The notes beneath the pieces were generated by a model that saw only the letters and a program-made list of their open reading frames with translations, had not been told where the DNA came from and did no database searches. DNA of 64,000 nucleotides from an archaeon GW2011_AR15 (GTDB lineage: Archaea; Nanobdellota; Nanobdellia; Woesearchaeales; GW2011-AR15): contig CP010425.1 of assembly GCA_000830295.1 (NCBI GenBank), positions 960,001 to 1,024,000 of the forward strand, written 5' to 3'. Below, one piece after another: positions 963 to 53,884 of the stretch. Every line of letters begins with the position of its first letter. Positions within the stretch are counted from its first letter, which is position 1. The position numbers were made by a program, and so were the translations under genes.

Positions 963-1032
963 TTTTTCTTCTCGTGAAAACTATAGCTTAACCAAAAAGC
1001 TTTTATATTTGAGAGTAAATGGTAATTTCAAT

Positions 1033-37005: not shown

Positions 37006-37011
37006 AAAAAA

Positions 37012-37105
37012 ACGCCAGCGCCCGGATTCCCAAATGAGCAAAGCGAATGGGTGCCAAAAATCTGTGATTTTTGAGCATGTTCAAATCCGGCAATCTAAAA
37101 AATAG
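37012..37105 (-). repeat. Duplicated tRNA-Ser(TGA) 3' end plus 77-bp hairpin cassette
   Basis: ACGCCAGCGCCCGGATT at 37012-37028 equals 37106-37122. The spacer contains hairpins CCCA-aatGAGCAAAGCGAA-TGGG and CAAAAATC-tgt-GATTTTTG, and an inverted T-arm copy GTTCAAATCCGG. Confidence 0.85.
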
Positions 37106-37106
37106 A

Positions 37107-37212
37107 CGCCAGCGCCCGGATTTGAACCGGGAATCCCCGAAGGGACCAGCTTGCTTTTCCTGATTACTCAGGTACTCAAGGCTGGCGCAATACCGGGTTA
37201 TGCGACGCTGGC
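37107..37212 (-). tRNA. tRNA-Ser(TGA) with a 23-nt intron at 37/38 (37152-37174)
   Basis: Minus strand: acceptor GCCAGCG/CGCTGGC plus G; anticodon arm CCAGC-CTTGAG|A-GCTGG; variable arm TCCCTTCGGGGA; T arm CCCGG-TTCAAAT-CCGGG; intron hairpin CCTGA-gtaa-TCAGG. Confidence 0.92.
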
Positions 37213-37254
37213 ATACAAAAGACAGAAAAAAACCCTGTATTTATATATTATGTT

Positions 37255-38277
37255 TTAGGCCGAGTCTATCTTGTATATTTTCAGCAGTGCAGTCATAATA
37301 GACAGTATAACTGGGCCGAGGACAACCCCGATGATTCCGAACGTGGTAATTCCGCCGACAATGCCGAGTATAATAAGCACAGGATGCACATTAACCTTCC
37401 CGCTTATGACAACAGGCTTCACAACATTGTCCACCATGCTTATCACTCCAATACCGAATGCAAGCAGCGCAAGCCCCCTAAACACGCCGGCTGTTGAGCC
37501 TGAGGAAATCAAGGGGACAACAATCATTGTTATGCTTATGGGGATATAGGCAAATGCAGGCCCTACCATGGGTATGACTGAGAACACAAGAGTCAGCAGG
37601 CCGAAGAAGAGTGGGACCCGAAGCCCGAGAACATAGTATGCAGCAGTCGCAAGTATTGCCTGGAGTATTGCAGTAACCACCTGTCCATATATTACAGCAT
37701 CCATTGTATTTTTTACTTCGCCTATCAATATCTGGCTCTTTGCTTTGCCGAAAGGGAGATATGCCCTAATGCTGTTTACCAACACATCCCCGTCTTTGAA
37801 AAAGAAGAACAGGAAAAGAATGGCCAGAGTGAAGTTCAGTATCCTCCCGGGAACTGATGTGAGGATTGCACGGAGGTTTTCCAGCAGGGAAGAGATGAAT
37901 CCGTCAATTACCCCGTTAAAATTTGACTCCACACCGACACTGCTCAGGATATTCTGGTATAAGCTGACAAGAGTCCCTGTATCACTGGCATAGCCTGAAA
38001 GCCATATATATACTGAAGGGATCTCCTTTATGAGGACATTCACAACATAGAAGACCGGGATTGTAATGATAAGAAGCACAAGCACACATATCAGGAGAGA
38101 GGCCAGCCAGTCGTATCTTATGGCTTTCCTGGCTACTTTGTAGAGAGGATAAAACAGATATGCTATGATCAGTGCACCAAGCATGGTCATTAAGTAAGGC
38201 CTGAACATGACAAAGGAGAGATAGGTAAGCAGAATCAGCATAAAGAGAGGACCGTAGTTCCTGTACAGGTCTTTCAT
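37255..38277 (-). CDS. AI-2E family transporter (UPF0118/PerM)
   Basis: AYLFYPLY, FFFFKDG, IPMVGP, DNVVKP and HP...GG...FGIIGVVLGP motifs. Start placed at MKDLY. Confidence 0.92.
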   Translation of the reverse strand: MKDLYRNYGPLFMLILLTYLSFVMFRPYLMTMLGALIIAYLFYPLYKVARKAIRYDWLASLLICVLVLLIITIPVFYVVNVLIKEIPSVYIWLSGYASDTGTLVSLYQNILSSVGVESNFNGVIDGFISSLLENLRAILTSVPGRILNFTLAILFLFFFFKDGDVLVNSIRAYLPFGKAKSQILIGEVKNTMDAVIYGQVVTAILQAILATAAYYVLGLRVPLFFGLLTLVFSVIPMVGPAFAYIPISITMIVVPLISSGSTAGVFRGLALLAFGIGVISMVDNVVKPVVISGKVNVHPVLIILGIVGGITTFGIIGVVLGPVILSIMTALLKIYKIDSA

Positions 38278-38363
38278 CCTAACTCTTTTGTTAAATACAG
38301 TATTTATATCTATCGGTTTTAGAGAGGACAAAATATATATACCTCTCATGATAATTACAACCT

Positions 38364-38624
38364 ATGAAATTTCATTTCATCAGCTCGGTAATATTCAGCG
38401 TATTGCTGGCCCTCATGGCGCTCAATGGCAATATCAAAATCAGGATGCTCTACATGGCAGGGGTGCTTGTGCTGTTCTATGTTACCCTTATCTCATTTGC
38501 CCTTGATTATGATGCACAGAGGAGAAAACAGTGGAGAGAAAAAGAGAAGAAAGTGTCAGAAGAGGTATATCAGAAGTTTGTAAAGCGGCACAGAAAATCC
38601 AGGCCAAAAAGAAAACATAAATAA
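38364..38624 (+). CDS. Small membrane protein with basic tail
   Basis: Two TM helices and a K/R-rich C-terminus. Confidence 0.6.
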   Translation: MKFHFISSVIFSVLLALMALNGNIKIRMLYMAGVLVLFYVTLISFALDYDAQRRKQWREKEKKVSEEVYQKFVKRHRKSRPKRKHK

Positions 38625-38647
38625 ATCATCAGGAATTTTCAGTTCTA

Positions 38648-39484
38648 ATGCACTTTGCAATCATTGTCTCAAAAAAAGATATAGCAGGCATGAACATAAG
38701 GAAAAACCTGCTGGAGATGTTTGATTTTTCTGAGAACGGAGAGTTCCCGGGCAGCAAAACATACAGCCTTAATTCTGATAAAAACATGGTAACATTATAC
38801 ACTATAGACGGAGACACTATTGTTTTTGAGGCAGCAGAGCAGGAGATAGAGGCAGATTATTTTATTTTTGCCACAAGGCACCAGAGCAAGTCAGGGGAAA
38901 AGACGCTTTCAGTGCACTTCCCCGGAAATTTCGGCGAGGCATCTGATTATGGGGGCAGAACAGGGGAGTTATGCACAGCTCCGGCAGGACTGCTGAAAGA
39001 GGGATTTAAGCTGCTTTCTGCTTCTGAAGACATAGGCTTCAGCATAACGCTTGAGGCAACGCACCATGGCCCGTTCATCAGGAAGCCGGTATTATTTATT
39101 GAAATCGGCTCAAGGGAAGAGCAGTGGTCAGATGCCAGAGCAGGAAAGATAACGGCAAAAATAATAATTGAAATGATTAAAAATTACAACCCAGAGAAAA
39201 AATATGAGACTGCAATCGGGTTCGGGGGAACTCACTACTGCAACAGCTTCAACAGAGCTGAGGCAAGCAGGGAAATTGCAATGAGCCACATCTGCCCGAA
39301 GCATTCCATTTCACAGCTTGATGAGACAATGGTAAAGAAAATGATTGATTCAACGCATGAAAAAGTGGACTATGCGCTCATAGACTGGAAAGGAATGTCA
39401 GCTGATGACAGAAACAGGGTAATAGGAATTCTTGATAATTTAGGGGTTGAGTGGAAGAAGACTAAGGGATTGGGAACTGAATAG
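38648..39484 (+). CDS. dtdA: D-aminoacyl-tRNA deacylase (archaeal DTD2)
   Basis: FATRHQS, LSVHFPGN, EATHHGP, FIEIGS, GFGGTHY and HICPK motifs. Confidence 0.94.
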   Translation: MHFAIIVSKKDIAGMNIRKNLLEMFDFSENGEFPGSKTYSLNSDKNMVTLYTIDGDTIVFEAAEQEIEADYFIFATRHQSKSGEKTLSVHFPGNFGEASDYGGRTGELCTAPAGLLKEGFKLLSASEDIGFSITLEATHHGPFIRKPVLFIEIGSREEQWSDARAGKITAKIIIEMIKNYNPEKKYETAIGFGGTHYCNSFNRAEASREIAMSHICPKHSISQLDETMVKKMIDSTHEKVDYALIDWKGMSADDRNRVIGILDNLGVEWKKTKGLGTE

Positions 39485-39489
39485 GAATC

Positions 39490-40104
39490 TTATATTTTTG
39501 GGATTAATATATTTCTTACATAATGCCCTGTCCCATTTCTAGGGATTAAAATGGGAACTATATCTCTTACCCAGTCTTTTTCAGGAATCCAGTCTCCCGG
39601 AGTCCCGTCTTTGTGCCTTATATTGAAATCATAGACAAGACCGCAGTCATATGCAACCCAGTGCGTATGGGAATAGGCCTGAGCCCATGCTTTCCAGCCT
39701 GAATATTTCCCCCCGGACCCTGTGAACTGTATAAATGCCAGCCCCGAAGGAAATTCGCCGAATGCTTCACTGGGCAGCTGGGGCTCTCCTGTTGTCCTGA
39801 TGCTTTTATGCGGCTCTCCGAATTCTCCCAGCAGTTCAAGCATAGGCTTTATTGAAATCCATCCTTTCTCCTGCCAGGCATAAGACCTCTCAATTACTTC
39901 CATGCATGATTTATTCAGGTAAGCTGCAGCTGAGGTAGGGCCGCAGTTTGCCAGTGTTTCCAATACATCATCTGGAATTCCTCTACCGGTCGGAACTTGC
40001 ACCATAAAAAGAGCGATTAGCATCTTATTTATAAATTTGCCTCGGTGCTCTTGAAAATGGGTATATGACAGATAATTTTTTATAGTCAGGGGCAAATCAG
40101 CCAT
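39490..40104 (-). CDS. Hypothetical protein, papain-fold/C39-like cysteine protease candidate
   Basis: NCGPTSAA...HWVAY...VYDFN gives Cys-His-Asp order and context. Start uncertain. Confidence 0.55.
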   Translation of the reverse strand: MADLPLTIKNYLSYTHFQEHRGKFINKMLIALFMVQVPTGRGIPDDVLETLANCGPTSAAAYLNKSCMEVIERSYAWQEKGWISIKPMLELLGEFGEPHKSIRTTGEPQLPSEAFGEFPSGLAFIQFTGSGGKYSGWKAWAQAYSHTHWVAYDCGLVYDFNIRHKDGTPGDWIPEKDWVRDIVPILIPRNGTGHYVRNILIPKI

Positions 40105-40110
40105 ATTGAG

Positions 40111-40323
40111 ATGGAATACATATATGTCTATCTGGTAACAGGGTTGTCTTTTTTTGCCATCTGGCTGACCATATTTATAGCGAGAAAAACAGGCTCAGCA
40201 GTGGCAATGATTGTGCTTTACCTGCTCTTTCTTATGATGGAGTTCAAACCATATTATGTAGACCTGCTTATTGGCGAGATGCGAAAAATGTACTATCGGA
40301 TATTAAGCAGGAACAAAATTTAA
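40111..40323 (+). CDS. Small membrane protein
   Basis: 70 aa with two hydrophobic helices. Confidence 0.5.
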   Translation: MEYIYVYLVTGLSFFAIWLTIFIARKTGSAVAMIVLYLLFLMMEFKPYYVDLLIGEMRKMYYRILSRNKI

Positions 40324-40348
40324 ATAGCCCTGAATATCACATTCATAT

Positions 40349-41035
40349 ATGCACAAATTAGTTCTGCTGAGGCACGGCGAAAGCGTCTGGAATAAGGAAA
40401 AGATATTCACCGGCTGGACAGATGTCGGGCTTTCAGAGAAAGGCATAGAGGAAGCAAAACAGGCCGGCAGGATTCTGAAGAAAAAGGGATACAAATTTGA
40501 CCTTGCATATACTTCTGTCCTGAAAAGGGCAATAGATACTCTTAAGCTTACTCTTGGCGAAATGGGGATTAAGGTTCCTGTGAAAAAGAGCTGGAGACTT
40601 AATGAGCGGCATTATGGTGCCCTTCAGGGATTCAGCAAAACAGAGATGGCTGAGAAAGTCGGCAAAGAGCAGGTTTTTACCTGGAGAAGGAGCTACGATG
40701 CAAGGCCGCCTGCACTGGAGAAGACAGACAGAAGATATCCTGGAAAAGATCCTCTCTATAAGGATGTTGATAAAAAAGATATCCCTGCATGCGAGAGCCT
40801 CAAGGACACAGTTGCAAGAGTGCTGCCATACTGGGAGGAGGAAATACTGCCCAGCATAAAATCAGGAAAAAGAGTAATCGTTTCAGCCCATGGCAACAGC
40901 CTGAGGGCGCTTGTAAAACACATCGACAATATTTCTGATGACGATATACCTAAGCTGGAAATACCCACCGGAATCCCTCTCGTATATGAATTTGATGAAG
41001 ATATAAGGCCTATAAGGCATTATTACCTGCAATAG
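40349..41035 (+). CDS. gpmA: 2,3-BPG-dependent phosphoglycerate mutase
   Basis: [42 protein letters not shown] and IPTGIP motifs. Confidence 0.97.
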
Positions 41036-41063
41036 CCGAGCTTCATGCTTTCCCTAGAGTTCC

Positions 41064-41084
41064 CGGAAACCCCCTTAGTTTCCG
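41064..41084. promoter_or_regulatory. Inverted repeat (possible operator or gpmA terminator)
   Basis: CGGAAAC-N7-GTTTCCG immediately upstream of TATA-like TTTAAAAA preceding ORF 41129. Confidence 0.35.
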
Positions 41085-41128
41085 AAAAATTTAAAAAAAA
41101 CAGCTTCACACCCCGTTCTTGATATAAA

Positions 41129-41296
41129 ATGTCAGATGACTACGTTGAGGACGAGTATGACGATTCAATAGAGGAGTCAAGCGAGGATCTTCTTGATGAT
41201 GATGAGCTTACCCCAGAAGAGCAGGCATTCCTGGAAGGCTATGAGGAGGACTCCGCTGAGGAAGAAGACGATGACCTTGACAAAGAATTTGAATAG
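41129..41296 (+). CDS. Small hyper-acidic protein (55 aa; not in ORF track)
   Basis: MSDDYVEDEYDDSIEESSEDLLDDDELTPEEQAFLEGYEEDSAEEEDDDLDKEFE; TATA-like element upstream; fills the intergenic gap. Confidence 0.75.
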   Translation: MSDDYVEDEYDDSIEESSEDLLDDDELTPEEQAFLEGYEEDSAEEEDDDLDKEFE

Positions 41297-41298
41297 CT

Positions 41299-42849
41299 CT
41301 AAATCTCAATATATTCCTTGAATTTTGAAATTGATTCCCTGTATTTTTTTATTTCTTCTGCTTTTTCCTTCAGTTTTTCGAGTTCAGAGACATAGTGCGC
41401 CCTTATCTTGTCGAGGCTCTCTTTTCCCTTTACCAGCTCATGCTCTTTTTTTCTTATTTTAGCCTCCTTTTTCTCAATATCCTGTGTCCTGCTCCTGATA
41501 TGCTCTTTTATGTTCTTTTTGTCATTGCTCAGTTTTTCAACCTCAAGCTTCAGTTCAGACAGCCTTTTTTCTTCCCTGTTTCGCATATCCAGCAGGTTCT
41601 TCACTTCAGCATCCAGCTCTTTTTTCTTTGTCTGGAAATCACTTTCATAAGAGCCGAGGACTTTCTCTTTTTCAGCAACAAGGTCAAGCCGTTCCAGCAG
41701 CTGGGTCCTCAGCATATTCAGTTTTTCACTTCTCTTCCCAAGTGCTTTTTCTTTTTCTGCAATTCTTCCCTTTTCGCTGTCTAATTCCTTATTCCTTCTC
41801 TCAAATTCTGCCTGCTCAGCTTTATTTGCGAGCCTGTCTTTTTTCATTGTTTTGTCCAGCTTCTGGAAGTCTTCTATCCTTTTTTCAAATTCCCTGGTTT
41901 TGTTTGCCAGTTTCTCTTCCAGTTTGATGACTCTGCTTTCCCTCTTGTTAAGCTCAAGGTCCAGGACATCAGTGTGAGTTTGCCTTTTCTTTAAGTCAGA
42001 AGACTCCTCTTTTAGTATTTCAGAAAACCTCAGCAGGTCTTTTTTCTTTGATTCAAATGCGCTCCTTTCTTTTTCAAAAGAATCTTTTTTTCCGGAAATA
42101 ATTACTTCTCTCTGCTTTATCTCAGACTCTTTCTCACCAAGCGCATTTGAATATTTCCTGAGCTCAGTTTCCTGCTTCCTGAGGCTTTTGGAGGATCTTT
42201 CAAGCAAAGCCTCCTCTGCCTCCATCTCTTTCATCAGCTTTTCAATTTTTTCACGGGTTTTTCCAAGCTCAATCTGCCTGTTCTCAAGCACCCTGTTTTC
42301 CTCAAGTGCATGCCTGTAAATCAGCTTTGCCTTGTGCTCCCTTATTTTTGTATGCTCAAACTTTTTCTCAAGAAGCGCCTCATACTCAGCAAGATGTTTT
42401 TCATACAGTTTCACGCCTGTCAGCTTTGCCTTGTAATCCTTCTTGTGCTTTTCAAAGCTTACTGCAAGCCCAGGCAGCTTATCTTCCAGCTCTTTCAGCT
42501 TCTTTTCCTTATAGTCAAGCTCACTGAATCTCTTTTTCAGCCCCTTGCCCAGAATATCAAGCTTCTTTTTCTTATCAGAGAGCTTTTTGTTGTGCCTTTG
42601 TATATGCCTGTGCTTTCTTTCAAGAGCCTCTTTCTCAGATTCAACTTTAAACAGCTCTCTTTTCCTGGATTCTTTCTCATTAAATATTCTTTTCAGGCTG
42701 TGCCTGACAAGCAGCTCTTTTCTTGCAGCATCCCTCAATTTAGAATCAACTCTGCTGTGAAGAGACTCAAGAGCCTGCTTTCTTTCAGAAATCTGTCTCT
42801 CAAGCTCTTTCAGCTCTTTCTGTTTTTTTCCAGTCTTTTTTTTAGCCAC
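41299..42849 (-). CDS. Long K/E-rich coiled-coil protein
   Basis: 516 aa of nearly continuous heptads; GTG start; no globular or ATPase domain. Confidence 0.8.
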   Translation of the reverse strand: MAKKKTGKKQKELKELERQISERKQALESLHSRVDSKLRDAARKELLVRHSLKRIFNEKESRKRELFKVESEKEALERKHRHIQRHNKKLSDKKKKLDILGKGLKKRFSELDYKEKKLKELEDKLPGLAVSFEKHKKDYKAKLTGVKLYEKHLAEYEALLEKKFEHTKIREHKAKLIYRHALEENRVLENRQIELGKTREKIEKLMKEMEAEEALLERSSKSLRKQETELRKYSNALGEKESEIKQREVIISGKKDSFEKERSAFESKKKDLLRFSEILKEESSDLKKRQTHTDVLDLELNKRESRVIKLEEKLANKTREFEKRIEDFQKLDKTMKKDRLANKAEQAEFERRNKELDSEKGRIAEKEKALGKRSEKLNMLRTQLLERLDLVAEKEKVLGSYESDFQTKKKELDAEVKNLLDMRNREEKRLSELKLEVEKLSNDKKNIKEHIRSRTQDIEKKEAKIRKKEHELVKGKESLDKIRAHYVSELEKLKEKAEEIKKYRESISKFKEYIEI

Positions 42850-43016
42850 AAGAATCCCCAGGAGAATAAATTGTTCTGTGATGGTTTATATATATTTCGA
42901 TTTGTTGTCTGCATTTAATTAATAGAAAAATATTGTATTTACTTAATGATAGTAAAAATAGGAATCTTTAAATATAGCCGGCTTTTTTTGATAGTATCTT
43001 TTAAGAAGGTGAAAAA

Positions 43017-43379
43017 ATGGACGCAAATCAGGACCTGGAAAAAGCATTAAAAATTTTACAATCAGTTCCAATAGACTCATGGAAACAAACTCAAGAAGCA
43101 AATACATTTGCAGCATATATAGAGAGTCCTAACGGGACACCATTAAACTTAAACTTAAGCTATCACATGGTGATGGGGCGCGTAGTTCTTTTACCCGGGC
43201 AAGAGGAACCTGAACCTAATAGAGGATATTATCTAAATATCAGAAATGGGAACGATCCTCTTAATGTTCTGTATACCGGGGTAATGTACGAACCAGACAG
43301 TGAATTTGGAAAGATATATCATCAACTCAAGGAGGAGAGATTTGCAAGAGAACATTTAACTTTGGAGGATGTATTTTAA
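43017..43379 (+). CDS. Hypothetical protein
   Basis: 120-aa ORF with SD AAGGTGA and TATA upstream. Confidence 0.7.
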   Translation: MDANQDLEKALKILQSVPIDSWKQTQEANTFAAYIESPNGTPLNLNLSYHMVMGRVVLLPGQEEPEPNRGYYLNIRNGNDPLNVLYTGVMYEPDSEFGKIYHQLKEERFAREHLTLEDVF

Positions 43380-43395
43380 TTTTATTCCAGTTCTC

Positions 43396-43737
43396 TTATT
43401 TTATTATAATCCTTTCAGCAATAATCTCTTTTTCACCATTGTATTCAGATATCTTTCCTGCAATCTCTACGCTGTCGCCAGGGGCAATTTCAATATCAGA
43501 TGAGAAGACAACAGCATTTATTTCAGTGGTTTCTGCCAGCACAAGACGTGTTGCCTCTCCCTTCCGGCTTACTGAAACAACTTTCCCTGCTACCTTTACA
43601 GATTCTTCTGTTTCCCCACTAGTTATCTTGTCTATGGTTGTGTCGTTTATCTCAATCGACTCAGCAACAGCATAGATCAGGCATAGCCCGACCAGTGATA
43701 CGAGTATAGCTATCCTTAGCAGGGTTGATTCTTTCAT
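43396..43737 (-). CDS. Membrane-anchored OB-fold protein
   Basis: N-terminal TM; VKVAGKV...INAVVF...GDSVEIAGKISEYNGEKEII OB pattern. Confidence 0.8.
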   Translation of the reverse strand: MKESTLLRIAILVSLVGLCLIYAVAESIEINDTTIDKITSGETEESVKVAGKVVSVSRKGEATRLVLAETTEINAVVFSSDIEIAPGDSVEIAGKISEYNGEKEIIAERIIIK

Positions 43738-43749
43738 TTTAACGGGAGA

Positions 43750-45660
43750 CTAATGCTTTTTTGTTTTTGCCCTGAGCTGATGAAGTACTTTTTCATGCCC
43801 TTTCCAGTCAAGGGCAGTCTCAAGGACTTCAAGAATGTTTTCCACAGGTATGACTTTTATTTTTGAAAGCTGCTCAGGAGAGATTATAATATCCCTCATG
43901 TTACTCTTGGGCACAATGACATACTTAAGTCCTGCTTCAATTGCTGCTTCCACTTTGCTTGTCACACCGCCTACAGGCAGCACTTCCCCTCTTACAGAGA
44001 GTGAGCCGGTCATTGCATGATCCTGCTTGATAGGCACTTCCTTCAGCGCGGAGATTATTGTTGTTGCAACAGCAATGCTGGCTGAATCCCCCTCAACACC
44101 TTCGTGAGTCTGGAGGAACTGGACATAAATGTCATATTTGTGCTGGATATCCTCTCCAAAGTATTTCCTTACGATAGCAGTGACATTTTTTATAGCTTCC
44201 TTGGCAATTTCCCCAAGGTTTCCGGTTGCAATTACCTGAGACTCTTTTCCGCCAAGCGTAACCTCTGATTCAATAGGGAGTATAATTCCTGAGAAAGCTG
44301 CTCCTCCGCCGATTACAGCAAGCCCGTTTACCCTTCCGACCTGCTTTCCTGATGTCCTTATCACTTCGTATTCCTTTTTCCTGTCTATATATTTGTCAGC
44401 TATCTGCTGCTCAAGTGTCCTTGAAATCTGCTTTGCCTTCTTTATGTGTTCAGGCTCAACAAGCTTATCTCCTTTTTCAGCAGCAACATCACCGGCAGCC
44501 CTTACAAGCCCTCCGAGATCCCTTAACCTCAGCGTAAGATGGCCTTTCCTGTTGGCCCTTTTCCTTGCCTCTTTTATTATCTCTTCGACAGCGGCTTTTG
44601 AGAAATGGGGGATCCTCTCATCTTTCTGGACTTCCTGGGCTATGAAAACAGCCAGCTTTTCCCTGTTTTCTTCATTATCCGGAATAGTCTCATCCATGAA
44701 AACCTCATAGCCGTATCCCCTTATCCTTGACCTTAAAGCAGGATGCATGTGCTTTACAGTCTCAAGGTTGCCTGCTGCCACGAGAATGAATTTGCATGGT
44801 ACAGGCTCTGTCCTTACCATAGCTCCCGCCGACCTTTCGGACTGGCCTGTAATTGCATACTTGCCTTCCTGCAGTGATGTAAGCAGCTCCTGCTGCGTCT
44901 GCGGCTGCAGTGTTGCAATCTCATCTATAAACAGCACACCCATATGGGCCTTGTGTATCATTCCCGCAACAACCCTGTCATGGCTGGGAGTGCCGAGCCC
45001 TCCGGACTGGAACGGGTCATGGAGGACATCCCCAAGCAGAGCTCCGGCATGGCTACCTGTTGCATCAAAGAATGGTGCCTGTTTTTTCCCAAAATTATCA
45101 ACAATAACCCTTGGAGCAAGTGTTTTCTGCTCCATCTTCCTCCCGAAGTTCATCATGAATATAAATCCGAACACAAACACGATTCCTGTCACCATTGATG
45201 CAGAATATATTATTGCGTTTGCAGTCGGGTTTCCCGGAACAAAGAATTCGTTCTTCCACAAATAGTAAGGCACAAGTGTTGAAATTATTATAAGTATTAT
45301 CATGATTACATTCATATGGCTCATTGAGGTATTGCTCTGTATCTTTGCCTTCATGGCAAATTCCCTTCCTTTTCCGCCTGCCATTGTCCTTATCAGCGGC
45401 TGGTTTTCATCATTGGGATTCGGGAAAGACAGGATATCAACAAGCTTTTCTTTTGGCAGAAGCTCAGCAAGAGCAATGCCCAGCATGGATTTTCCGGTTC
45501 CGGGCTCTCCTATAAGCAGGACGTGCCTTCTCTGCCCAGCAGCCTTTTTTATTATATTTACGGCATGCTCCTGTCCTATTACCTGGTCCACAATTTTTTT
45601 GGAAACAGGTATATCCTTTGTAGTCCTGAATTTGAGCCCCTTTGCCTTTTTTTCAGCCAT
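43750..45660 (-). CDS. lonB: Archaeal membrane-bound Lon protease
   Basis: [10 protein letters not shown] insertion, [17 protein letters not shown], catalytic GVEGDSAS and PVGGVTSK. Confidence 0.96.
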
Positions 45661-45716
45661 TCTAAACCGTAAAATGCACTTGGTATTTAAATTTAGTGAT
45701 AGAAAATATGCAGATT

Positions 45717-46421: not shown

Positions 46422-46493
46422 ATATTTTTGGATATCTCAGATCTTTTTAAGAGTTTGGTTATATTTTTAAAAGCAGCCAGTTTCCCAGAAGCT

Positions 46494-48179
46494 ATGGAAG
46501 GATTTTATGAAGAGATAGTATCAGTGCTGAAAAAGAAGAAGCTTTCGAAAAAAGAGCTTAACAGGCTGAAGACCAAGCTTTCAAAAAAATACGGGCTCAG
46601 GAAGATTCCAACAGACGCAGATATAATCCTTAATGCTGATCCTGAATATGCAGAAAAACTGGAGCTTATCACAAAGCCGACAAGAACATTGTCAGGAGTC
46701 GCTCCAATAGCACTGATGACAAGACCCCATAAGTGCCCGCACGGGACATGCATATACTGCCCCGGAGGACCTGGCAGCATCTTTGGCGATGTCCCACAGT
46801 CATACACAGGCAGGGAGCCAAGCACAATGAGGTCTGCAAGAAACCATTATGACCCTTATCTTGTTGTTTTCAACAGGCTTGAGCAGTTCTTCATACTCAA
46901 CCAGAACCCTGAAAAGACAGAGATCATCATACAGGGCGGCACATTCCCTTCGCTTGACGATAAGTATAAGGAAGAGTTTGTCATGTATGTATTCAAGGCA
47001 ATGAATGATTTTTCGGACAAGTTCTACAAAAATAATAAGTTTGATTTTGTCTCATTCAAAAAATTCTTTGAGCTGCCGGGAGACATAAAGGATGCAGAAA
47101 GAACCAGCAGAGTCCAGCAGAAAGTGCTGAAATTAAAAAAGAGTTCCGGGCTTGAAAAAGAAAAGAAGAGAAATGAGAGCTCAAGAATAAGATGCGTAGG
47201 CCTCACAATAGAGACAAAGCCTGACTGGGGGCTCCTTAAGCAGGGAAACGAGATGCTGGAATATGGCTGCACAAGAGTCGAGCTTGGAGTCCAGGCAACA
47301 GATGACAGGATACAGAGGTTCACAAACAGGGGACATGGCATAAAGGAGACAGTAGAGAGCACAAGGATACTGAAAGACCTTGGATTCAAGATAAATTATC
47401 ACATGATGCCAGGGCTTCCGCTCAGCAGCCCTGAAAAAGACCTTGAGATGCTCAGGGAAACAATAGAAAACCCAGATTTCAAGCCGGACATGTTCAAGAT
47501 ATATCCGACAATGGTGCTGAAAGGCACAGCGCTTTACAGGATGTGGCAAAAAGGAAAATACCTGCCAATGACGAGAGAAACAGCAGCGGAAATAATTTCA
47601 GAGTTCAAGCGCTACATACCGCGCTGGGTGAGGATAATGAGGGTCCAGAGGGATATTCCCACATATGTCACAGAAGCCGGGGTTGACAGGACTAATCTCA
47701 GGCAGTATGTTGAAGAAAAACTCAGGCAGAAAAAAATTGCATGCAGATGCATAAGGTGCAGAGAAGCGGGACTTGTCTCAAGAAAGGAAAACATCAGCAA
47801 AATTATTCCTGAGCTTTTTGTTGAAGAATACGAGGCAAGCAGGGGAAGAGAATTTTTTATTTCTTTTGAGAGCCGTGACAGGAAAGTGCTTTTCGGCTAC
47901 TGCAGGCTGAGATTCCCCTCGCAGTTTTTGAGGAAAGAAATAACAGAGGGGAGCGCACTGCTGAGGGAGCTGCATGTTGTGGGAACAGCAACAGGGATAG
48001 GGGGGGAAGGGAATGTGCAGCACAGGGGCATGGGGAAAAAGCTGCTTGAGAAAGCAGAGAAAATTGCCTTAGAGAATGGCAAGAGCAAGATGGTCGTCAT
48101 TTCAGGGGTCGGAGTAAGGGAATATTACAGGAAGCTTGGATATAAGAGACAAGGACCATACATGGCAAAATTACTCTGA
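46494..48179 (+). CDS. elp3: Elp3 tRNA U34 acetyltransferase (radical SAM plus GNAT)
   Basis: KPTRTLSGVAP, CPHGTCIYCPGG, QSYTGREP, RVQRDIP, RELHV, QHRGMG and GVGVREYY motifs. Start placed at MEGFY. Confidence 0.96.
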   Translation: MEGFYEEIVSVLKKKKLSKKELNRLKTKLSKKYGLRKIPTDADIILNADPEYAEKLELITKPTRTLSGVAPIALMTRPHKCPHGTCIYCPGGPGSIFGDVPQSYTGREPSTMRSARNHYDPYLVVFNRLEQFFILNQNPEKTEIIIQGGTFPSLDDKYKEEFVMYVFKAMNDFSDKFYKNNKFDFVSFKKFFELPGDIKDAERTSRVQQKVLKLKKSSGLEKEKKRNESSRIRCVGLTIETKPDWGLLKQGNEMLEYGCTRVELGVQATDDRIQRFTNRGHGIKETVESTRILKDLGFKINYHMMPGLPLSSPEKDLEMLRETIENPDFKPDMFKIYPTMVLKGTALYRMWQKGKYLPMTRETAAEIISEFKRYIPRWVRIMRVQRDIPTYVTEAGVDRTNLRQYVEEKLRQKKIACRCIRCREAGLVSRKENISKIIPELFVEEYEASRGREFFISFESRDRKVLFGYCRLRFPSQFLRKEITEGSALLRELHVVGTATGIGGEGNVQHRGMGKKLLEKAEKIALENGKSKMVVISGVGVREYYRKLGYKRQGPYMAKLL

Positions 48180-48222
48180 TATTCAGATAAATTTAAATAT
48201 CCTCTTTTTCATTGTCACTGAA

Positions 48223-48486
48223 ATGACGAATGCCCAGGGCTTCCTGGATGAGATTATTATTAATATCAAGACAAGCATTGCTACTGGCATTGATGTTTCT
48301 TCTGTTAAATTCTGCGAAACTCTCTGCAATCCCCCTTTTCTTATGAATGAGCGCGGGAAGTGCAACATGTATGTAGAAAGGCCTGAATTAAAAGAAGCAT
48401 ATATATGCCCTTATCTAAAGAAAGAAGACAGATGCGGCAAGGACTCAAGAACTCCGTTAGGTAAAAATTACCTTACCTATGCATAA
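48223..48486 (+). CDS. Small Cys-containing hypothetical protein
   Basis: 87 aa from ATG 48223 with five Cys; TATA-like TTTAAATA upstream. Confidence 0.55.
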   Translation: MTNAQGFLDEIIINIKTSIATGIDVSSVKFCETLCNPPFLMNERGKCNMYVERPELKEAYICPYLKKEDRCGKDSRTPLGKNYLTYA

Positions 48487-48547
48487 TTACCCAAAATTAT
48501 TTAAAGAATATAATACTCACACAATTCTATAAGGTGTTTTTCGGGTT

Positions 48548-48838
48548 ATGAGTAAAATAAGACTGTTAGTTTTAGACGTTCTAAAACCACACGAGCCGTC
48601 AATAATGCGGATTGCTACAGCATTAAGCGACCTTGAGGGAGTTGATGGCGCAGATATTACGGTATATGAGATAGACAGCAAAGTGGAGAACGTAAAAGTC
48701 ACGCTGCAGGGCAAGGATATTGATTTCGCGCAGGTCAAGGAAATAATGGAAGAGAATGGCGCTTCTATACACAGTATCGACAAGGTATCAACCGGAGCTG
48801 TGATTGTTGAGGAGGCCCATACCCATCAGGATACTTAA
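48548..48838 (+). CDS. DUF211 family protein
   Basis: IRLLVLDVLKPHEP...GASIHSIDKV motif. Confidence 0.9.
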   Translation: MSKIRLLVLDVLKPHEPSIMRIATALSDLEGVDGADITVYEIDSKVENVKVTLQGKDIDFAQVKEIMEENGASIHSIDKVSTGAVIVEEAHTHQDT

Positions 48839-48853
48839 TCCAGATGAAAACTC

Positions 48854-49435
48854 ATGGAATTCTTAAAAAAATTAAAGGAATACAACAGGATTGCAAAAAT
48901 TTCTGAGATAGCAAGAAGATACTTTGTAATGAATTCTTTTGACGGCATACTTACTATACTGGGCATCCTCATAGGAACCTATGTTGCAAAAGTGGAGAGC
49001 CCGCACATTATCATTTCCACGGGAATTGCAGCAAGCATTGCCATGGCTGTTTCAGGCATGTGGGGAACATATCTGACTGAAGAGGCAGAGCGAAAAAAGA
49101 AGCTGAAGGATTTAAGAAAGCATATCATGGTGGACCTGGAGAAGACCAAGCTTGGGGAAGCGGAAAGGGCAGCTGCAATAATAGTGTCTTTCATAGACGG
49201 AGCTGCGCCATTCCTTTCAGCAGTGATTGTGCTCATACCTTTTTTCCTTATTAACCTTATCAACCTTCAGATTGCATATTCAATCAGCATAGCACTGGCG
49301 TTTGTGCTCCTTATAATACTCGGCGGGTTCCTGGGGCATATATCAAAAGAAAGCATACTGAAGAATGCACTGAAGATGCTGCTTGCAGGCATTGTTTCTG
49401 TGGTATTGATACTCCTTCTTGGCAGCTATGGTTAA
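48854..49435 (+). CDS. VIT1/CCC1-related membrane protein (TIGR00267-like)
   Basis: ARRYFVMNSFDGILTILG and SGMWGTYLTEEAER motifs; usual partner of DUF211. Confidence 0.88.
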   Translation: MEFLKKLKEYNRIAKISEIARRYFVMNSFDGILTILGILIGTYVAKVESPHIIISTGIAASIAMAVSGMWGTYLTEEAERKKKLKDLRKHIMVDLEKTKLGEAERAAAIIVSFIDGAAPFLSAVIVLIPFFLINLINLQIAYSISIALAFVLLIILGGFLGHISKESILKNALKMLLAGIVSVVLILLLGSYG

Positions 49436-49467
49436 TTTTTTAAATGAGGCAGTCCTCTTCCGCAAAT

Positions 49468-50430
49468 ATGGAACTAAAAGCTTTCCCTGACAAGGAAGAC
49501 ATAAAGCTGAAAAAAGCCTTTGAGGAGAGGTACAGGATGCTTCTCGGAGAGAGGTTTGAGGAGTATATGAAGTATTCGCTTTCTTTTCTTACAAGGTCAA
49601 TAAGGGTAAATACAGTCAAAGCTTCTGTTAAAGATGTGAGAAGAAGGCTGGAGGAAAAGGGATGGAAGCTTTATCAGATCCCTTTCTGCAAAGAAGGCTT
49701 CTGGGTTGAGCATGAAACAGGAAGGATTGATATCGGAAATACAAGAGAGCACGCGCTCGGCTATTATTATGTCCAGGAAGCGGCTTCTATGATACCCCCG
49801 ATTGTGCTGGGCCCAAAAAAGCATGAGCTGATACTTGACATGTGCGCTGCTCCGGGAAGCAAGACAACACAGATAGCGCAGTATATGGGGAATACAGGCC
49901 TTCTCATAGCGAATGACCTCACAGGAGACAGGATGAAGCCTCTCGGCATAAACATCCAGAGGATGGGGCTTACTAATGTAATTATCACGAAAATGTACGG
50001 CCAGTGGTTCAGCAGGAGAAAAATAGAGTTTGACGGGGTGCTTGTCGATGCTCCGTGCTCAGGCACAGGCACGATAAGGAAAAGCCTGAAGACGCTTACA
50101 ATATGGAATCCCGGGATGATTGAAAGGCTGGCAGCAACCCAGAGAAAGCTTATCTCAACAGGCTTTGAAAGCCTGAAGAAAGGCGGAGTTATGGTGTATT
50201 CGACATGCTCAACAGAACCATTAGAGAATGAGGCAGTTATTTCTTATTTGTTGGAAAGCCGCAAAGCCGCAAAAATTGAAGAGATTAAGATGGATTTAAA
50301 GAGGTCTGAGCCTGTCATGGAATTTGAAGGTCAGAAATTCAATCCTGAAGTCAAGAAATGTTTAAGATTGTGGCCGCAGGATAATAATACAGAGGGTTTT
50401 TTTGTGTGTAGAATAAGAAAAACCAGTTAA
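49468..50430 (+). CDS. RsmB/NOL1/NOP2 RNA m5C methyltransferase
   Basis: YYVQEAASM.P, DMCAAPGSKT, DAPCSGTG, YSTCS..P.ENE and EGFF motifs. Confidence 0.95.
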   Translation: MELKAFPDKEDIKLKKAFEERYRMLLGERFEEYMKYSLSFLTRSIRVNTVKASVKDVRRRLEEKGWKLYQIPFCKEGFWVEHETGRIDIGNTREHALGYYYVQEAASMIPPIVLGPKKHELILDMCAAPGSKTTQIAQYMGNTGLLIANDLTGDRMKPLGINIQRMGLTNVIITKMYGQWFSRRKIEFDGVLVDAPCSGTGTIRKSLKTLTIWNPGMIERLAATQRKLISTGFESLKKGGVMVYSTCSTEPLENEAVISYLLESRKAAKIEEIKMDLKRSEPVMEFEGQKFNPEVKKCLRLWPQDNNTEGFFVCRIRKTS

Positions 50431-50461
50431 GCTTATAAATAAATTCTATCTCGCTGAAAAA

Positions 50462-51628
50462 ATGGGACTTAGCAGAAGAGAGTTTTTAAATTTGAGTTTG
50501 CTGTGCTTAGCTACACCGGCTCTCCGTTCTATTGATTTAATGTTATCTATGCCTCTCTTAGGCGGTAGTCAAAACTCTACTTTGCTTTTAGATGATATAC
50601 TTTCTGGAAAAAACTACTCAGTTCCTGCATTTATTGATATGATCAAAGAAACTAGCGGTGGAGATTATAGAACCTTAAGCTTTGGCGAATCACATGGTGT
50701 TAATGAACAGAGAGGATTGGCACGCAGAATTTTGACAGCAATTAAAGAGGATATTGATCTTTTTATTGAGGAGAAGAACACATTCTTTACCTCTGATCAG
50801 ACCATTGACAAATGGAATCAAGGGTATGACAAAGAGATATTTGATCCATGGATACCTCTTCAATTCATAATGCGGGGCTTAAATAGAATAGAAGAAGGAT
50901 TATTAGTCACATATTCAGGAAATATGCATACGCATAGCAGTCTTCATGACAAATATTATTTTGGATCAGTCACTGATCATTATTTTAGTAAGACCCAAGA
51001 TTCACGTTACCGAACTATTGATGAATCTTTAGAATATATGGATTCTAAAGGAATTACCCTGCTAATGCTGGAGGAAGATAATATTTCTAAAGACTTGCAA
51101 AATAAATTTCTTGCAGCGAACTTTTCCAGAATAGAAGGTTTTAAGGATCATGTTCCAAAAGAGGGATATTGGAGAGAGATATGCGATTATTTTATGAGTG
51201 AGACAAGCCAAAAGCTGGAAGAGATAAATAATCATAGAATCTATGAGTTAGACCAAGAGTTATTCATTTATGTTTCTCCTCCCGAAGATGTTAAAAAAGG
51301 TCAACTTGAAATAATTGAGAATTTCATGACAGTATTTAGCCATCCCACATTAAGACAATACATACTGGAAAATAATTTAGGATATATGAAAGGAGACCAT
51401 TTTAAGGGGGGATATGGGACCACGCCTGGCAAAATAGCCGGCTTAATGAGCTTCCAGTTTCCTGACGAAAGACCAGAGAAGGAAAGAAGACATCTTGAGA
51501 TTATTCTTAAACATAATCCTTGGAAAGAAAGAGTGCCTGTTTTAGCAAAATTATTTGATCCACAGAAAGGAGAGTATGGAGAATATGAAGAGCTGAATTT
51601 GCTTTCTAGACATGGCCATTCTGATTAA
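50462..51628 (+). CDS. Twin-arginine-signal hypothetical protein, possible EreA/ChaN-like fold
   Basis: MGLSRREFL plus hydrophobic stretch; LSFGESH and LVTYSGNMH motifs. Confidence 0.6.
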   Translation: MGLSRREFLNLSLLCLATPALRSIDLMLSMPLLGGSQNSTLLLDDILSGKNYSVPAFIDMIKETSGGDYRTLSFGESHGVNEQRGLARRILTAIKEDIDLFIEEKNTFFTSDQTIDKWNQGYDKEIFDPWIPLQFIMRGLNRIEEGLLVTYSGNMHTHSSLHDKYYFGSVTDHYFSKTQDSRYRTIDESLEYMDSKGITLLMLEEDNISKDLQNKFLAANFSRIEGFKDHVPKEGYWREICDYFMSETSQKLEEINNHRIYELDQELFIYVSPPEDVKKGQLEIIENFMTVFSHPTLRQYILENNLGYMKGDHFKGGYGTTPGKIAGLMSFQFPDERPEKERRHLEIILKHNPWKERVPVLAKLFDPQKGEYGEYEELNLLSRHGHSD

Positions 51629-51666
51629 AACATAATTTTAAATATAAATTTTCTGTCCCTGAATCC

Positions 51667-51969
51667 ATGAGTGATTTATATAAGCTTGATATTGACCTTG
51701 AAGGAAGTGTTACATTATATAATTCTCCTGTTCAGGCAATGCCATTAGGACTTCCAATATTTGTGTTCTCTACAAACCCGACAGACGGAGAAAAAGACCC
51801 AATGAAAAGAGATCCTCTTGCTTTTAATGAAGAAGAAGCTATGGCCACAGATTATATAAAAGCTTTCAGGCCGCCGAGAGCAAATGCTTATGTCATTGGC
51901 AGCTCTGTACGCACTCCCAGAAACATAATCTACAAGGCCGTCCAGTTCTACAGAGTTGATAAGATATGA
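51667..51969 (+). CDS. Hypothetical protein
   Basis: 100-aa ORF with TATA upstream; stop overlaps the next start. Confidence 0.65.
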   Translation: MSDLYKLDIDLEGSVTLYNSPVQAMPLGLPIFVFSTNPTDGEKDPMKRDPLAFNEEEAMATDYIKAFRPPRANAYVIGSSVRTPRNIIYKAVQFYRVDKI

Positions 51970-52679
51970 TAAAAAGGCTTTCCACAGTTACGTTATCCCA
52001 GCAAATTCCGCAAAGGGGCACAGGGAAAAAAATTTCTAGGGATGAAGCAATTGTTTATGATTTTATGCCTGCTGTTCTTGGAAATAAATTCAGGACAAAT
52101 GAGATTCTTTCAAGGATGTTGTTAAGGCGAGCACCAGAAACTGCTCCATTTATGCTGCTGACTGATGCCTACGAGGAATTAGGCCTAAGATATGCGGGGG
52201 AGGGAAGCATAATCCCTGCCTTGGAATGCTACAGGATTGCCCTGCAAAGCAGAACTAGTTTTGCAAGAGCAATGGGGCTTATTCAGGGCAAAGCACTGCA
52301 TGATGAAAATGAAATAGACCACATGACACTTTCAGACAGCCTTGAGCAAAGACTTGTAGGATTAGTGGCAGAATCTGAGAAAGAGGTTGATTATGTTGCC
52401 TATAACTCATGGATTGAAGAACTGAGGGAAGCTCAGAAGAATTGGTGGAGATTAAACAGGACCCAGCATGGCTCTGAAAAATACATAGAAGCTTGCCTGA
52501 AGATTGGAGAATACCAGGAAGCCCTGGCAAGCGCAGAGGTTCTAAAAGACAGCAATCTGATTAGGAAAGTAAAAAAGGCGCAGCCACCGGAAATTCTTGA
52601 TTTAGATTTCCTGAAAAAATATATCAACGATAATTATCCTGACAGCACAATTGGCAGGGACTCGGTAGGGGTTATGTGA
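51966..52679 (+). CDS. Hypothetical helical (TPR-like) protein
   Basis: 237 aa; AYEELG...ALECYRIAL and ACLKIGEYQEAL helical-repeat patterns. Confidence 0.65.
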   Translation: MIKRLSTVTLSQQIPQRGTGKKISRDEAIVYDFMPAVLGNKFRTNEILSRMLLRRAPETAPFMLLTDAYEELGLRYAGEGSIIPALECYRIALQSRTSFARAMGLIQGKALHDENEIDHMTLSDSLEQRLVGLVAESEKEVDYVAYNSWIEELREAQKNWWRLNRTQHGSEKYIEACLKIGEYQEALASAEVLKDSNLIRKVKKAQPPEILDLDFLKKYINDNYPDSTIGRDSVGVM

Positions 52680-52772
52680 GCTCTTTCTCGCTTATGTTCG
52701 GAAAATAAAATTTGCAAAAATAGCAAATTTTATATACAATACTCTACTAGGGAATAGTCAGAAGGTGATAGC

Positions 52773-53186
52773 ATGCCGGAAGATGACATTCGCAGGTTGA
52801 GAAAAGATATTGATTCACTGAAAGATGATATGCAGACAAGGGATTCGCTTGCCCGCTCTGTTAATTCTTTGCTGAAGATATTCGAGGAAGCATCCAAAGA
52901 CCTCAAGATGGACACAAGGGATGCTGTCCTTATATCGGAAAAGATGGATAATATAATGAGGCGGCTGGAAAGGCTGGAAACCCATAATGAGAAGATTGCC
53001 AAGGGAATTGTGGCAATAGCGGACATGCTTGAGGAAAAGGGATTTGCCAAAGTGCAGAAGGGCGAATCAAAATCAATCCTGGCAAGCGCAACCCCTCCGC
53101 CAGCTATGGGCAGCACAAAGCAGCTGCCAACATATGATATCCCTAAAGATGAAAGGAAAAAGACATTTCTGAATTTCAAGAGTTAA
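52773..53186 (+). CDS. Hypothetical coiled-coil protein with Pro-rich tail
   Basis: 137 aa preceded by SD AAGGTGA. Confidence 0.75.
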   Translation: MPEDDIRRLRKDIDSLKDDMQTRDSLARSVNSLLKIFEEASKDLKMDTRDAVLISEKMDNIMRRLERLETHNEKIAKGIVAIADMLEEKGFAKVQKGESKSILASATPPPAMGSTKQLPTYDIPKDERKKTFLNFKS

Positions 53187-53187
53187 A

Positions 53188-53619
53188 ATGCCCGGTTTTG
53201 AACAGTATAACACGGAAAGAGTAAAGACTTTTCTAAAATACCTTGTGCACGCTGCGGCAAAACATAAGCCTGAGAGAGCAGTAATCAGGGAATTGAGAGA
53301 GCAGCGGGAAGAAAGGCTTGTTCCGGCAATAAGGAAGAGGCCTGAGAGGCTCCATATACCTGGCAGTGCAGAAAGGCTTTCTGTAATAACAGATGAGAGA
53401 AAAGAAGAGCTTGAAGTGAAGATAAAGATGCACCACACAAGAAACAGGTTTCTTCCATACGAGCTAAGGCTGAAAAAACTAAAGAAGAGGTATGCAACAA
53501 TAAAGAGAAGAAAAATCTCCACCAAGGCTGATAAGAGAAGGCTGGAAGTGCTGAATAACAGGATAGAAAGATGCGAGAGCCTGCTGAAAGAATTAAAAGC
53601 CAATGCCCACGAATATTAA
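53188..53619 (+). CDS. Hypothetical highly basic coiled-coil protein
   Basis: 143 aa, R/K-rich; 1 bp after the upstream gene. Confidence 0.7.
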   Translation: MPGFEQYNTERVKTFLKYLVHAAAKHKPERAVIRELREQREERLVPAIRKRPERLHIPGSAERLSVITDERKEELEVKIKMHHTRNRFLPYELRLKKLKKRYATIKRRKISTKADKRRLEVLNNRIERCESLLKELKANAHEY

Positions 53620-53624
53620 CTACC

Positions 53625-53710
53625 TCAGATATCTCTTGCCATAAGAGTCTCTGTTTTAAGAAAACAGAGGACAAAACAAGTGGGTTTCGCTTCGCTCAAG
53701 CCCACAGAAA
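53625..53710 (-). repeat. Synonymously diverged duplicate of the histone 3' end plus 62-bp hairpin cassette
   Basis: 53625-53648 reads ACT CTT ATG GCA AGA GAT ATC TGA (TLMARDI*), versus the gene end ACA CTA ATG GCA AGG GAT ATC TAA. The spacer has CTCTGTTTT-aag-AAAACAGAG and GTGGG-tTTCGCTTCGCTCaag-CCCAC hairpins. Confidence 0.85.
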
Positions 53711-53875: not shown

Positions 53876-53884
53876 ATGACCACC

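Follow-up and report, generated by a model that had tools for sequence, protein, structure and literature searches.

Gene-less hairpin cassettes at gene ends and in tRNA introns of the archaeon GW2011_AR15 and its relatives: candidate attachment-site modules

Introduction

Cis-mobilizable elements (CIMEs) are gene-poor derivatives of integrative elements and show tandem accretion, and at integrase sites of the T-loop type the block of identity begins in the T-loop of the tRNA gene. Casposons, the elements of Cas1, insert at tRNA 3′ ends with target duplications of 14-15 bp and are found in tandem arrays. Here, we compare with these and other known systems a set of small hairpin cassettes from a stretch of 64,000 nucleotides of the groundwater archaeon GW2011_AR15, referred to below as the window (G000:C1:960001-1024000, where G000 is the single-contig genome of 1.158 Mb, 96.8% complete). 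Two genes of the window are each followed by such a cassette and then by a second copy of their own 3′ end. We describe both sites, the other cassettes of the genome and their counterparts in 60 relatives (61 genomes with G000).

The cassettes apparently constitute a large family that has not previously been described: no Rfam family (release 15) matches them, and no paper describing them was found in a search of main-text literature. They would represent an order-wide family of gene-less hairpin cassettes of 40-90 nt in DPANN archaea of the Woesearchaeota type, with modules swapped between forms. Our tentative reading, which we favour while rating it somewhat short of probable, is that they are miniature integrative cassettes resembling attachment (att) sites, akin to the tRNA introns of the same lineage and moved in trans by a putative recombinase.

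Mobile elements and introns share the same loops of archaeal tRNA genes and are usually treated apart. Cassettes are borne by about half of the tRNA genes in the reduced genome of GW2011_AR15 and occur in half of the relatives sampled; the family offers dozens of natural intermediates and may show how archaeal tRNA introns arise. It also shows that DNA modules that are very small and enzyme-less are able to settle at the ends of essential genes without harm. In the part that concerns us here, an earlier paper describes direct repeats of tRNA fragments at the integration borders of archaeal tRNA genes, and puts forward integration of an element with an intron in its attachment site as one way for archaea to gain tRNA introns (PMC3293823). 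How these introns arrive is still presented as open in the relevant portion of a recent preprint (bioRxiv 10.64898/2026.10.13.758758).

A family of cassettes in one small genome

The original prediction rested on two stem-enclosed motifs in the window, CCCA-AAT-GAGCAAAGCGAA-TGGG at 37029-37051 (+) and GTGGG-CTT-GAGCGAAGCGAA-A-CCCAC at 53680-53705 (-), and took them for members of a candidate family of miniature, modular, structure-defined elements aimed at gene 3′ ends. Both motifs are present at these positions. Its caution about a small sample was well placed: the 12-mer occurs twice in the window against 0.51 expected, and at least two copies arise in 6 of 100 shuffles, a count within the shuffle range, so the two copies are not significant alone and prove little by themselves. 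The existence of a family is borne out by the genome as a whole. A covariance model, R1, gave 17 cassettes in G000 at E<=0.001, 16 of them being training rows of the model; overall, there are 17-26 model matches per 1.16 Mb. The tally of host genes given below combines this model with a short-range direct-repeat scan (334 pairs, of which 25 at gene ends were chosen by eye) and a profile search. The exact 12-mer is present five times, three times in cassettes of this build and twice in another repeat near the genome start, and a relaxed loop search (GAGC-NNN-GCGA) finds further copies beside tRNA 3′ ends. As had been anticipated, other copies of the motif are tied to hairpins and duplicated gene ends.

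The repeat near the genome start, GAGCG(A/T)AGCGAA, is found three times (G000:C1 ~690-710, 1565-1600 and 5360-5380, with the exact 12-mer at ~696 and ~5365); GA-rich runs and a palindrome lie alongside, and no gene-end duplication accompanies these copies.

tRNA genes are the main hosts. In G000, a cassette with a copy of the tRNA 3′ end on either side follows 21 of them, namely 20 of the 39 genes called by ARAGORN and one uncalled gene, at genome position 762,961. Two further cassettes lie at tRNA 5′ ends, and the 80-nt intron of tRNA-Gly(ccc) is filled by another. Cassettes are also carried by five protein genes: a histone-fold gene (3′), Nop10 (5′), an Asp/Asn-tRNA-synthetase-like gene (3′), a pilin-like gene (5′, twice in tandem) and a 181-aa open reading frame (ORF; 3′). 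The supposed specificity for 3′ ends is thus not retained, as cassettes also occur at the 5′ ends of tRNA and protein genes, in anticodon-loop introns and once in a spacer without duplication. A replication-strand bias of the motif was considered and ruled out, orientations being mixed and set by the host gene.

Several builds can be distinguished. The commonest runs from an oligo-T tract through a hairpin with tandem G·A pairs and a yTGTTTyy linker to a second hairpin; others have an A/T hairpin in place of the first one, and short builds of 37-47 nt combine an antisense copy of the tRNA end with a GA-NN-GNRA-NN-GA hairpin. At G000:C1:561739-561800, a cassette-like second hairpin with a TGTTTCC linker abuts a sequence that opens with the RNase P RNA signature GAGGAAAGTCC; from this weak model match (E 0.7), the RNase P RNA gene may have a cassette at its 5′ end.

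Hairpins kept by compensatory changes

The fold of the cassettes is maintained by compensatory changes. RNAalifold recovers only the outer stem from the raw MAFFT alignment, and the structure was therefore supplied by hand. With this structure, 77.3% of cells are paired across 16 cassettes, compared with 64.9% in shuffles (0/500 reach the observed value). In an alignment of 46 model matches from 28 genomes, which was fitted to R1 by a procedure that itself favours the structure, 88.1% of pair cells hold a pair, compared with 70.7% after shuffling (0/500 reach the observed value), two-sided changes are seen at 14 of the 16 pairs, and slid controls give 25-53%.

The consensus of the first hairpin reads stem-CTT-GA-NN-loop-N′N′-GA-AA-stem. 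Its inner two pairs occur as GC/GC, AC/GT, CC/GG and CT/AG. The GA..GA flank is conserved in 35 of the 46 matches and replaced by Watson-Crick pairs in one copy. The AA end is found in 34/46; site 1 of the window has GA-A-stem instead. A helix followed by three unpaired bases and then, beside a short helix, by tandem G·A/A·G pairs recalls the kink-turns bound by L7Ae and the hammerhead ribozyme. In terms of the kink-turn and hammerhead consensus, the U-G-A / G-A-A arrangement is like the extended stem II of hammerheads. Neither identity applies: in a canonical kink-turn, the 3′ GA directly adjoins the outer stem, whereas here one or two extra A's intervene; for a hammerhead, two bases of the conserved core and the three-way junction are missing.

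Distribution and orientation in relatives

R1 matches 31 of the 60 relatives (E<=0.001), including 5/5 of the same genus, 16/19 of the same family and 15/41 from other families of the order, and G000 holds the most matches of all genomes. The best-match locus was inspected in 27 relatives. The cassette lies inside an anticodon-loop intron called by ARAGORN, antisense to the tRNA (tRNA-Thr or Gly), at 5 of these 27 loci; beside a tRNA gene and together with a duplicate, at the 3′ end in 3 loci and at the 5′ end in 2; and at the end of a protein gene with a duplicate of 29-49 nt at 4. At the other 13 the context was not resolved.

At 3′ ends the oligo-T side points toward the gene; in introns and 5′ leaders the cassette is inverted. 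Since a sense T-run in an intron or a leader would end transcription, we ascribe this bias to selection rather than to the mechanism of insertion.

The two cassettes of the window

Each motif is followed by an A/T-rich hairpin with a 3-nt loop and a perfect stem, and each cassette is bracketed by a repeated gene end, as originally described (Table 1). The repeat is 23 nt long with 91% identity at site 1 (tRNA 3′ end; spacing 94, 17 nt of it exact) and 23 nt with 87% identity at site 2 (last 7 codons of a 54-aa ORF; spacing 86). The two sites do share the motif, with one correction: its strand is antisense to the tRNA at site 1 and sense to the gene at site 2. Likewise, they belong to one family as far as this module is concerned, but represent different cassette types. 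Site 2 is a typical member (R1 match at 53646-53709, 73.6 bits, the second best in G000) whose closest relative in the genome is the Nop10 copy. Site 1 is missed by R1 at E<=0.001 in G000, and combines the shared hairpin, inverted relative to its host gene, with an antisense copy of the T-arm.

Table 1. Features of the two cassette sites; positions are those of the window
Feature	Position	Strand	Evidence or remark
Site 1: tRNA gene, host of the cassette	37107..37212	-	Rfam RF00005, 42.8 bits, E 6e-8; long variable arm (Ser-type)
Site 1: S1, gene-proximal copy of tRNA 3′ end (T-loop A58 to discriminator +1)	37106..37122	-	17-nt exact direct repeat, spacing 94
Site 1: oligo-T run directly after the tRNA, terminator-like	37095..37105	-	Read from sequence
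Site 1: antisense copy of tRNA T-loop and T-stem	37079..37090	-	12 nt, 100% complementary to 37116-37127; helix in minimum-free-energy fold
Site 1: A/T-tract hairpin, loop TGT	37052..37077	+	Perfect 8-bp stem, arms 37055-37062/37066-37073
Site 1: tandem-G·A hairpin CCCA-AAT-GA-GC-AAA-GC-GA-A-TGGG	37029..37051	+	Antisense to tRNA; same motif and orientation after homologous tRNAs in L045, L057
Site 1: S2, distal copy of tRNA 3′ end	37012..37028	-	TGGG-AAT before it on the tRNA strand
Site 2: 54-aa conserved histone-fold-like ORF, host of the cassette	53711..53875	-	Homologue in 54/61 genomes; weak Pfam CBFD_NFYB_HMF match, 16.8 bits, below cut-off
Site 2: S1, gene-proximal copy (last 7 codons and stop TAA)	53711..53735	-	Direct repeat
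Site 2: tandem-G·A hairpin GTGGG-CTT-GA-GC-GAA-GC-GA-AA-CCCAC	53680..53705	-	Sense to gene
Site 2: linker TTGTTTTGT, conserved; family consensus yTGTTTyy	53671..53679	-	Cassette alignments
Site 2: second hairpin, loop CTT (- strand)	53647..53672	-	Perfect 9-bp stem, arms 53649-53657/53661-53669
Site 2: S2, distal gene-end copy (…LMARDI, stop TGA)	53626..53649	-	3 differences from S1, all synonymous or stop
Site 2: convergent 143-aa ORF, native neighbour of the gene end	53188..53619	+	Stop 6 nt from S2

The tRNA of site 1 has a 26-nt insertion within its anticodon loop. ARAGORN, when allowed introns, labels it Ala-tgc; we regard it as Ser-type because of its long variable arm and because its homologues in relatives are labelled Ser. 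Inspection of 1500 nt downstream of 31 tRNAs revealed the site-1 type behind homologous Ser-type tRNAs of three relatives, with the motif kept in two and another hairpin in its place in the third. In one same-genus relative (L045, G001:C130), the inverted motif hairpin stands three times in tandem, in 40-nt units, downstream of tRNA-Ser and before the distal copy of the tRNA end.

Apart from the tRNA, Rfam searches around both sites gave chance-level matches only. Contigs from four DNA runs were compared over the region 36500-54500: the cassette sequence is identical in one bridging contig, and neither site carries a joint among the contig joints listed.

Gain in single lineages and constraint on the fold

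The orthologue of the histone-fold gene lacks a cassette in all 19 relatives examined at this site, and the convergent gene comes directly after its stop codon. In G000, it is the distal copy of the gene end that occupies this native position, 6 nt from the stop of the neighbour. Among eight metagenome loci with the histone-fold gene, the closest, L148 (94% amino-acid identity), has the same cassette at the same site, L152 has an inverted one and the other six have none. Because the site is empty in 19 relatives but filled in G000 and L148, cassettes appear to be gained in single lineages and then to persist under selection for their fold.

Constraint of this sort may also be expected of elements that serve the host. 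The cassettes could be REP-like structural elements, acting as stabilisers of RNA ends, insulators of terminators or protein-binding sites, which spread rarely and illegitimately and leave duplicated gene ends as by-products. Like REPs and REPINs, they are short, imperfect extragenic hairpins with conserved mismatches, numerous in the genome and often placed between convergent genes. Their fold is preserved even between orthologous copies, the inner stem being AC/GT in L148 and GC/GC in G000, and the oligo-T side sits where 3′ ends need a terminator and is turned around in introns and 5′ leaders, where the T-run would then not terminate transcription. Copies are old and diverged, and G000 is devoid of the mobility genes sought. 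REPs, by comparison, do not duplicate gene ends, and copies of the cassettes are not near-identical. Against such a role, 19 of 19 relatives manage without a cassette at the histone-fold site, and tandem pile-ups with decaying outer copies look selfish. Moreover, introns, 5′ ends and site 1 carry the motif in antisense to the host transcript; even so, its non-Watson-Crick G·A pairs continue to be conserved on the same DNA strand. We consider this explanation unlikely.

Gene-end copies: attachment sites or target duplications

The repeats that bracket the cassettes range from 11 to 42 nt in G000 and up to 49 nt in relatives, and all five duplications at protein genes end 0-4 nt from a start or stop codon. 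Coding differences between the two copies are synonymous in 20 of 21 cases. In G000 they amount to 8/8 (three in the histone-fold gene, counting TAA/TGA, two in the 181-aa ORF, two in Nop10 and one in the synthetase-like gene); in relatives, to 1/1 in L131, 3/4 in L148 and 8/8 over 12 codons in L118, where the peptides are identical and the gene-end copies only 79% identical. Copies of tRNA ends are usually identical. In tandem arrays (Phe, His and pilin-like), the outermost copy is the most diverged.

These features recall integrase-type elements and CIMEs. In both, the repeats derive from the terminal segment of the target gene, the inner copy keeps the gene intact and the outer one adjoins the native neighbour; the repeat extends from the T-loop to the 3′ end of tRNA genes; elements pile up in tandem with older copies further out; and the copy borne by the element differs as an allele would, concerted change being an alternative cause. 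The copy pattern thus resembles, by analogy, the attL/attR of elements that bear a replacement gene end. The cassettes differ in that they are only 40-90 nt long, carry no genes and have no integrase nearby, that one conserved core serves many targets, and that 5′ ends and introns are occupied as well. In the attachment-site reading, cassettes would be selfish, non-autonomous modules without cargo that enter by recombination just inside a gene terminus, with the result, as in attL/attR, that the gene keeps a working terminus on its own side while the copy that was displaced ends up beyond the cassette. Their hairpins would act in cis as the recognition module of a recombinase supplied in trans, and lodged cassettes would persist through selection for the fold.

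Alternatively, the cassettes could be true transposons resembling MITEs (miniature inverted-repeat transposable elements), mobilised by a long-stagger transposase that is either unknown or comes from outside (a virus or a plasmid), the repeats being target-site duplications. A homologous core common to many sites, insertion in both orientations, the lineage-specific insertion at the histone-fold site and the mostly identical tRNA copies would all fit. Several properties are hard to reconcile with it. A fixed-stagger transposase fits poorly with the variable length of the duplications (with none at all in L152), their arrest at gene termini and the almost exclusively synonymous differences, which in L118 separate copies that are far from identical. 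DDE-type MITEs have terminal inverted repeats and a fixed short target-site duplication; at site 2, a repeat search found only the internal 9-bp hairpin and no terminal inverted repeats, and inverted repeats at site 1 are internal or involve the tRNA. Simple target-site duplication, as implied by the original prediction, is therefore not upheld, and its analogy with REPs and MITEs is apt for the form of the elements but not for their mechanism or enzyme. With no suitable transposase in the genome or in step with the cassettes (see below), we judge a MITE-like origin to be quite unlikely.

Candidate enzymes

The original prediction placed the trans-acting enzyme among HUH transposases, tyrosine recombinases and reverse transcriptases. 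No protein of G000 matches Cas1 (PF01867), RVT_1, Y1_Tnp (PF01797), TnpB-type or GIY-YIG families. Co-occurrence also speaks against an HUH enzyme or a reverse transcriptase: Y1_Tnp/HUH proteins, the group of the RAYT and IS200/IS605 transposases that go with REPs and other hairpin MITEs, are encoded by 19 of the 60 relatives, 11 with cassettes and 8 without, and 20 cassette-bearing genomes lack Y1_Tnp; RVT_1 is found in 9/60, three of which have cassettes, and all 5 same-genus genomes lack it. For tyrosine recombinases, co-occurrence is uninformative because they are present in 57 of the 61 genomes. Casposons were rejected in view of the lack of Cas1, the absence of terminal inverted repeats and the variable length of the duplications.

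A 165-aa integrase-like ORF is located at G000:C1:119542-120039 (+) (L145:1043-1540). It scores 26.5 bits to the catalytic domain of tyrosine recombinases, below the Pfam cut-off, and no clear catalytic tyrosine is seen by eye; ORFs of like size, 170-200 aa, exist in many genomes of the same family.

Large integrases of the ordinary kind adjoin tRNA-Ser, His and Thr genes in several relatives, in line with an att-like origin of the cassettes. As movers of the cassettes they were set aside: the cassette profile has no match (nhmmer, E<=1) in 8 integrase-bearing regions of relatives, 5 of which contain a tRNA gene. The same integrases lend some colour to the idea that cassettes are plain scars, that is, remnants of integrase-borne viruses or plasmids that entered gene ends and were almost fully deleted, and direct repeats of gene ends are the usual footprint of such elements, as the passages on archaeal tRNA genes in PMC3293823 describe. 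Yet the same two-hairpin core of 60-90 nt would need to have been spared by every one of more than 25 independent deletions, this core is under structural constraint and also occupies introns, and the 8 integrase regions gave no match to the cassette profile. Plain scars are accordingly the least credible of the explanations considered here, and highly improbable.

Link to tRNA introns

The cassette core fills anticodon-loop introns, in tRNA-Gly(ccc) of G000 and at the Thr and Gly loci of relatives mentioned above. A second link comes from introns of another position. In G000, the genes for tRNA-Ser(gga), Asp(gtc) and Ala(tgc) each contain a 32-nt intron in the T-loop (59/60), and ARAGORN sees these tRNAs only after its removal. 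The 3′ junction of such introns consists of TGAA or TGAG, three bases and the 3′ strand of the T-stem; the four bases pair with T-loop positions 54-57 and each splice site comes to lie in a 3-nt bulge, in the geometry of a bulge-helix-bulge (BHB) motif.

The junction between cassette and S2, TGRG followed by AAT or a near variant and by the T-stem strand, attains this 4/4 pairing in 7 of 18 tRNA loci, whereas random 4-mers pair 4/4 with the T-loop in 1.8% of trials (0.018). The seven loci represent four cassette types, site 1 included, and 5/7 have a full copy of the T-stem; by eye, two more relatives show a perfect TGAA junction. At site 1, the TGGG-AAT before S2 can pair with the T-loop in BHB geometry (H 4/4, h 5/5). 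The pairing counts come from an offset scan. Automatic scoring based on ARAGORN gene ends was dropped: with ends misplaced by 1-2 nt in several genes, it was unreliable. Several tRNA-linked cassettes would thus keep a junction able to form the BHB of a T-loop intron, which points to kinship between the two.

How far this kinship goes can be read in two ways. On the one hand, the cassettes may be the DNA stage of mobile archaeal splice-motif introns, which would land at a gene end together with a harmless spare end; the tRNA splicing endonuclease would then cleave read-through transcripts at the T-loop, the product would be circularised, and loss of the inner copy would leave an obligate T-loop intron. 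We regard this as unlikely but not negligible. If true, it would be the first concrete route by which archaeal tRNA introns are gained, and the places of integration and of introns would be linked through the same 7-nt loops. On the other hand, cassettes could be mobile introns outright: a cassette with one gene-end copy would be excised by the endonuclease, circularised by RtcB and returned to 7-nt loops (T-loop or anticodon loop) through recombination or reverse splicing; a single cycle would then have gene-end cassettes and T-loop introns as two of its stages. The occurrence of the same core as the body of anticodon-loop introns in several genera, the reproduction of the 3′ splice half of genuine T-loop introns before S2, and the presence of genes for EndA and RtcB in G000 are all in keeping with this proposal, and splicing would yield the normal tRNA, with AAU in either bulge. 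It is strained by the absence of RVT_1 matches in G000 and the five same-genus genomes, by the antisense orientation of intron copies relative to gene-end copies, by protein-gene cassettes such as site 2 that have no splice motif, and by the T-runs that precede many cassettes. In addition, unlike BHB introns, which occupy the position between bases 6 and 7 of a 7-nt loop (37/38 or 59/60), most cassettes, sites 1 and 2 among them, lie outside a gene that is complete without splicing; only the intron copies sit within anticodon-loop introns. Mobile introns in this full sense seem to us improbable.

Points against the attachment-site reading

Several observations weigh against cassettes moved as att-like modules and related to introns. 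One core would have to acquire a different end for each target gene, which the reading does not explain. G000 has only one Xer-like tyrosine recombinase (123 bits) besides the weak integrase-like ORF, and neither is linked to cassettes. Cassette copies within this genome are diverged, none being near-identical, and there is no sign of recent bursts. Filled and empty alleles have not been seen within a population, a question on which the comparison of contigs from the four DNA runs is uninformative. In L152 (72% identity), the inverted cassette directly follows the stop codon and fills the spacer of the convergent genes without any duplication. Two synonymous changes are common to G000 and L148 and stand in both gene-end copies. 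From this concerted change, gene conversion is also at work, and part of the synonymous-only pattern could arise from it with no foreign allele involved.

The RNA side of the argument meets difficulties as well. G·U and A·C counts of 26 to 16 indicate a weak strand preference. At least five T's precede about half of the tRNA cassettes, and transcription should therefore stop before the cassette. The splice-motif fit fails in 9 of the 18 tRNA loci (0-2 of 4 pairs) and is partial in two more (3/4), and at protein-gene cassettes, site 2 included, the splice motif gave nothing above chance.

tRNA genes hidden by introns

Cassettes break tRNA finders. In the window, default ARAGORN reports 0 tRNAs, and an Rfam scan of all 64 kb at gathering score gives 0 families, despite at least two tRNA genes there; these genes are overlooked because introns and filters hide them. 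In intron mode, ARAGORN finds 39 tRNA genes genome-wide. The tRNA-Ser(gga) gene at 797-963 (+) of the window has two introns, one of 51 nt in the anticodon loop and the 32-nt one in the T-loop (917-948, 59/60), and the other two tRNA genes with T-loop introns lie at genome positions 1,031,973 (+, Asp) and 1,043,127 (-, Ala).

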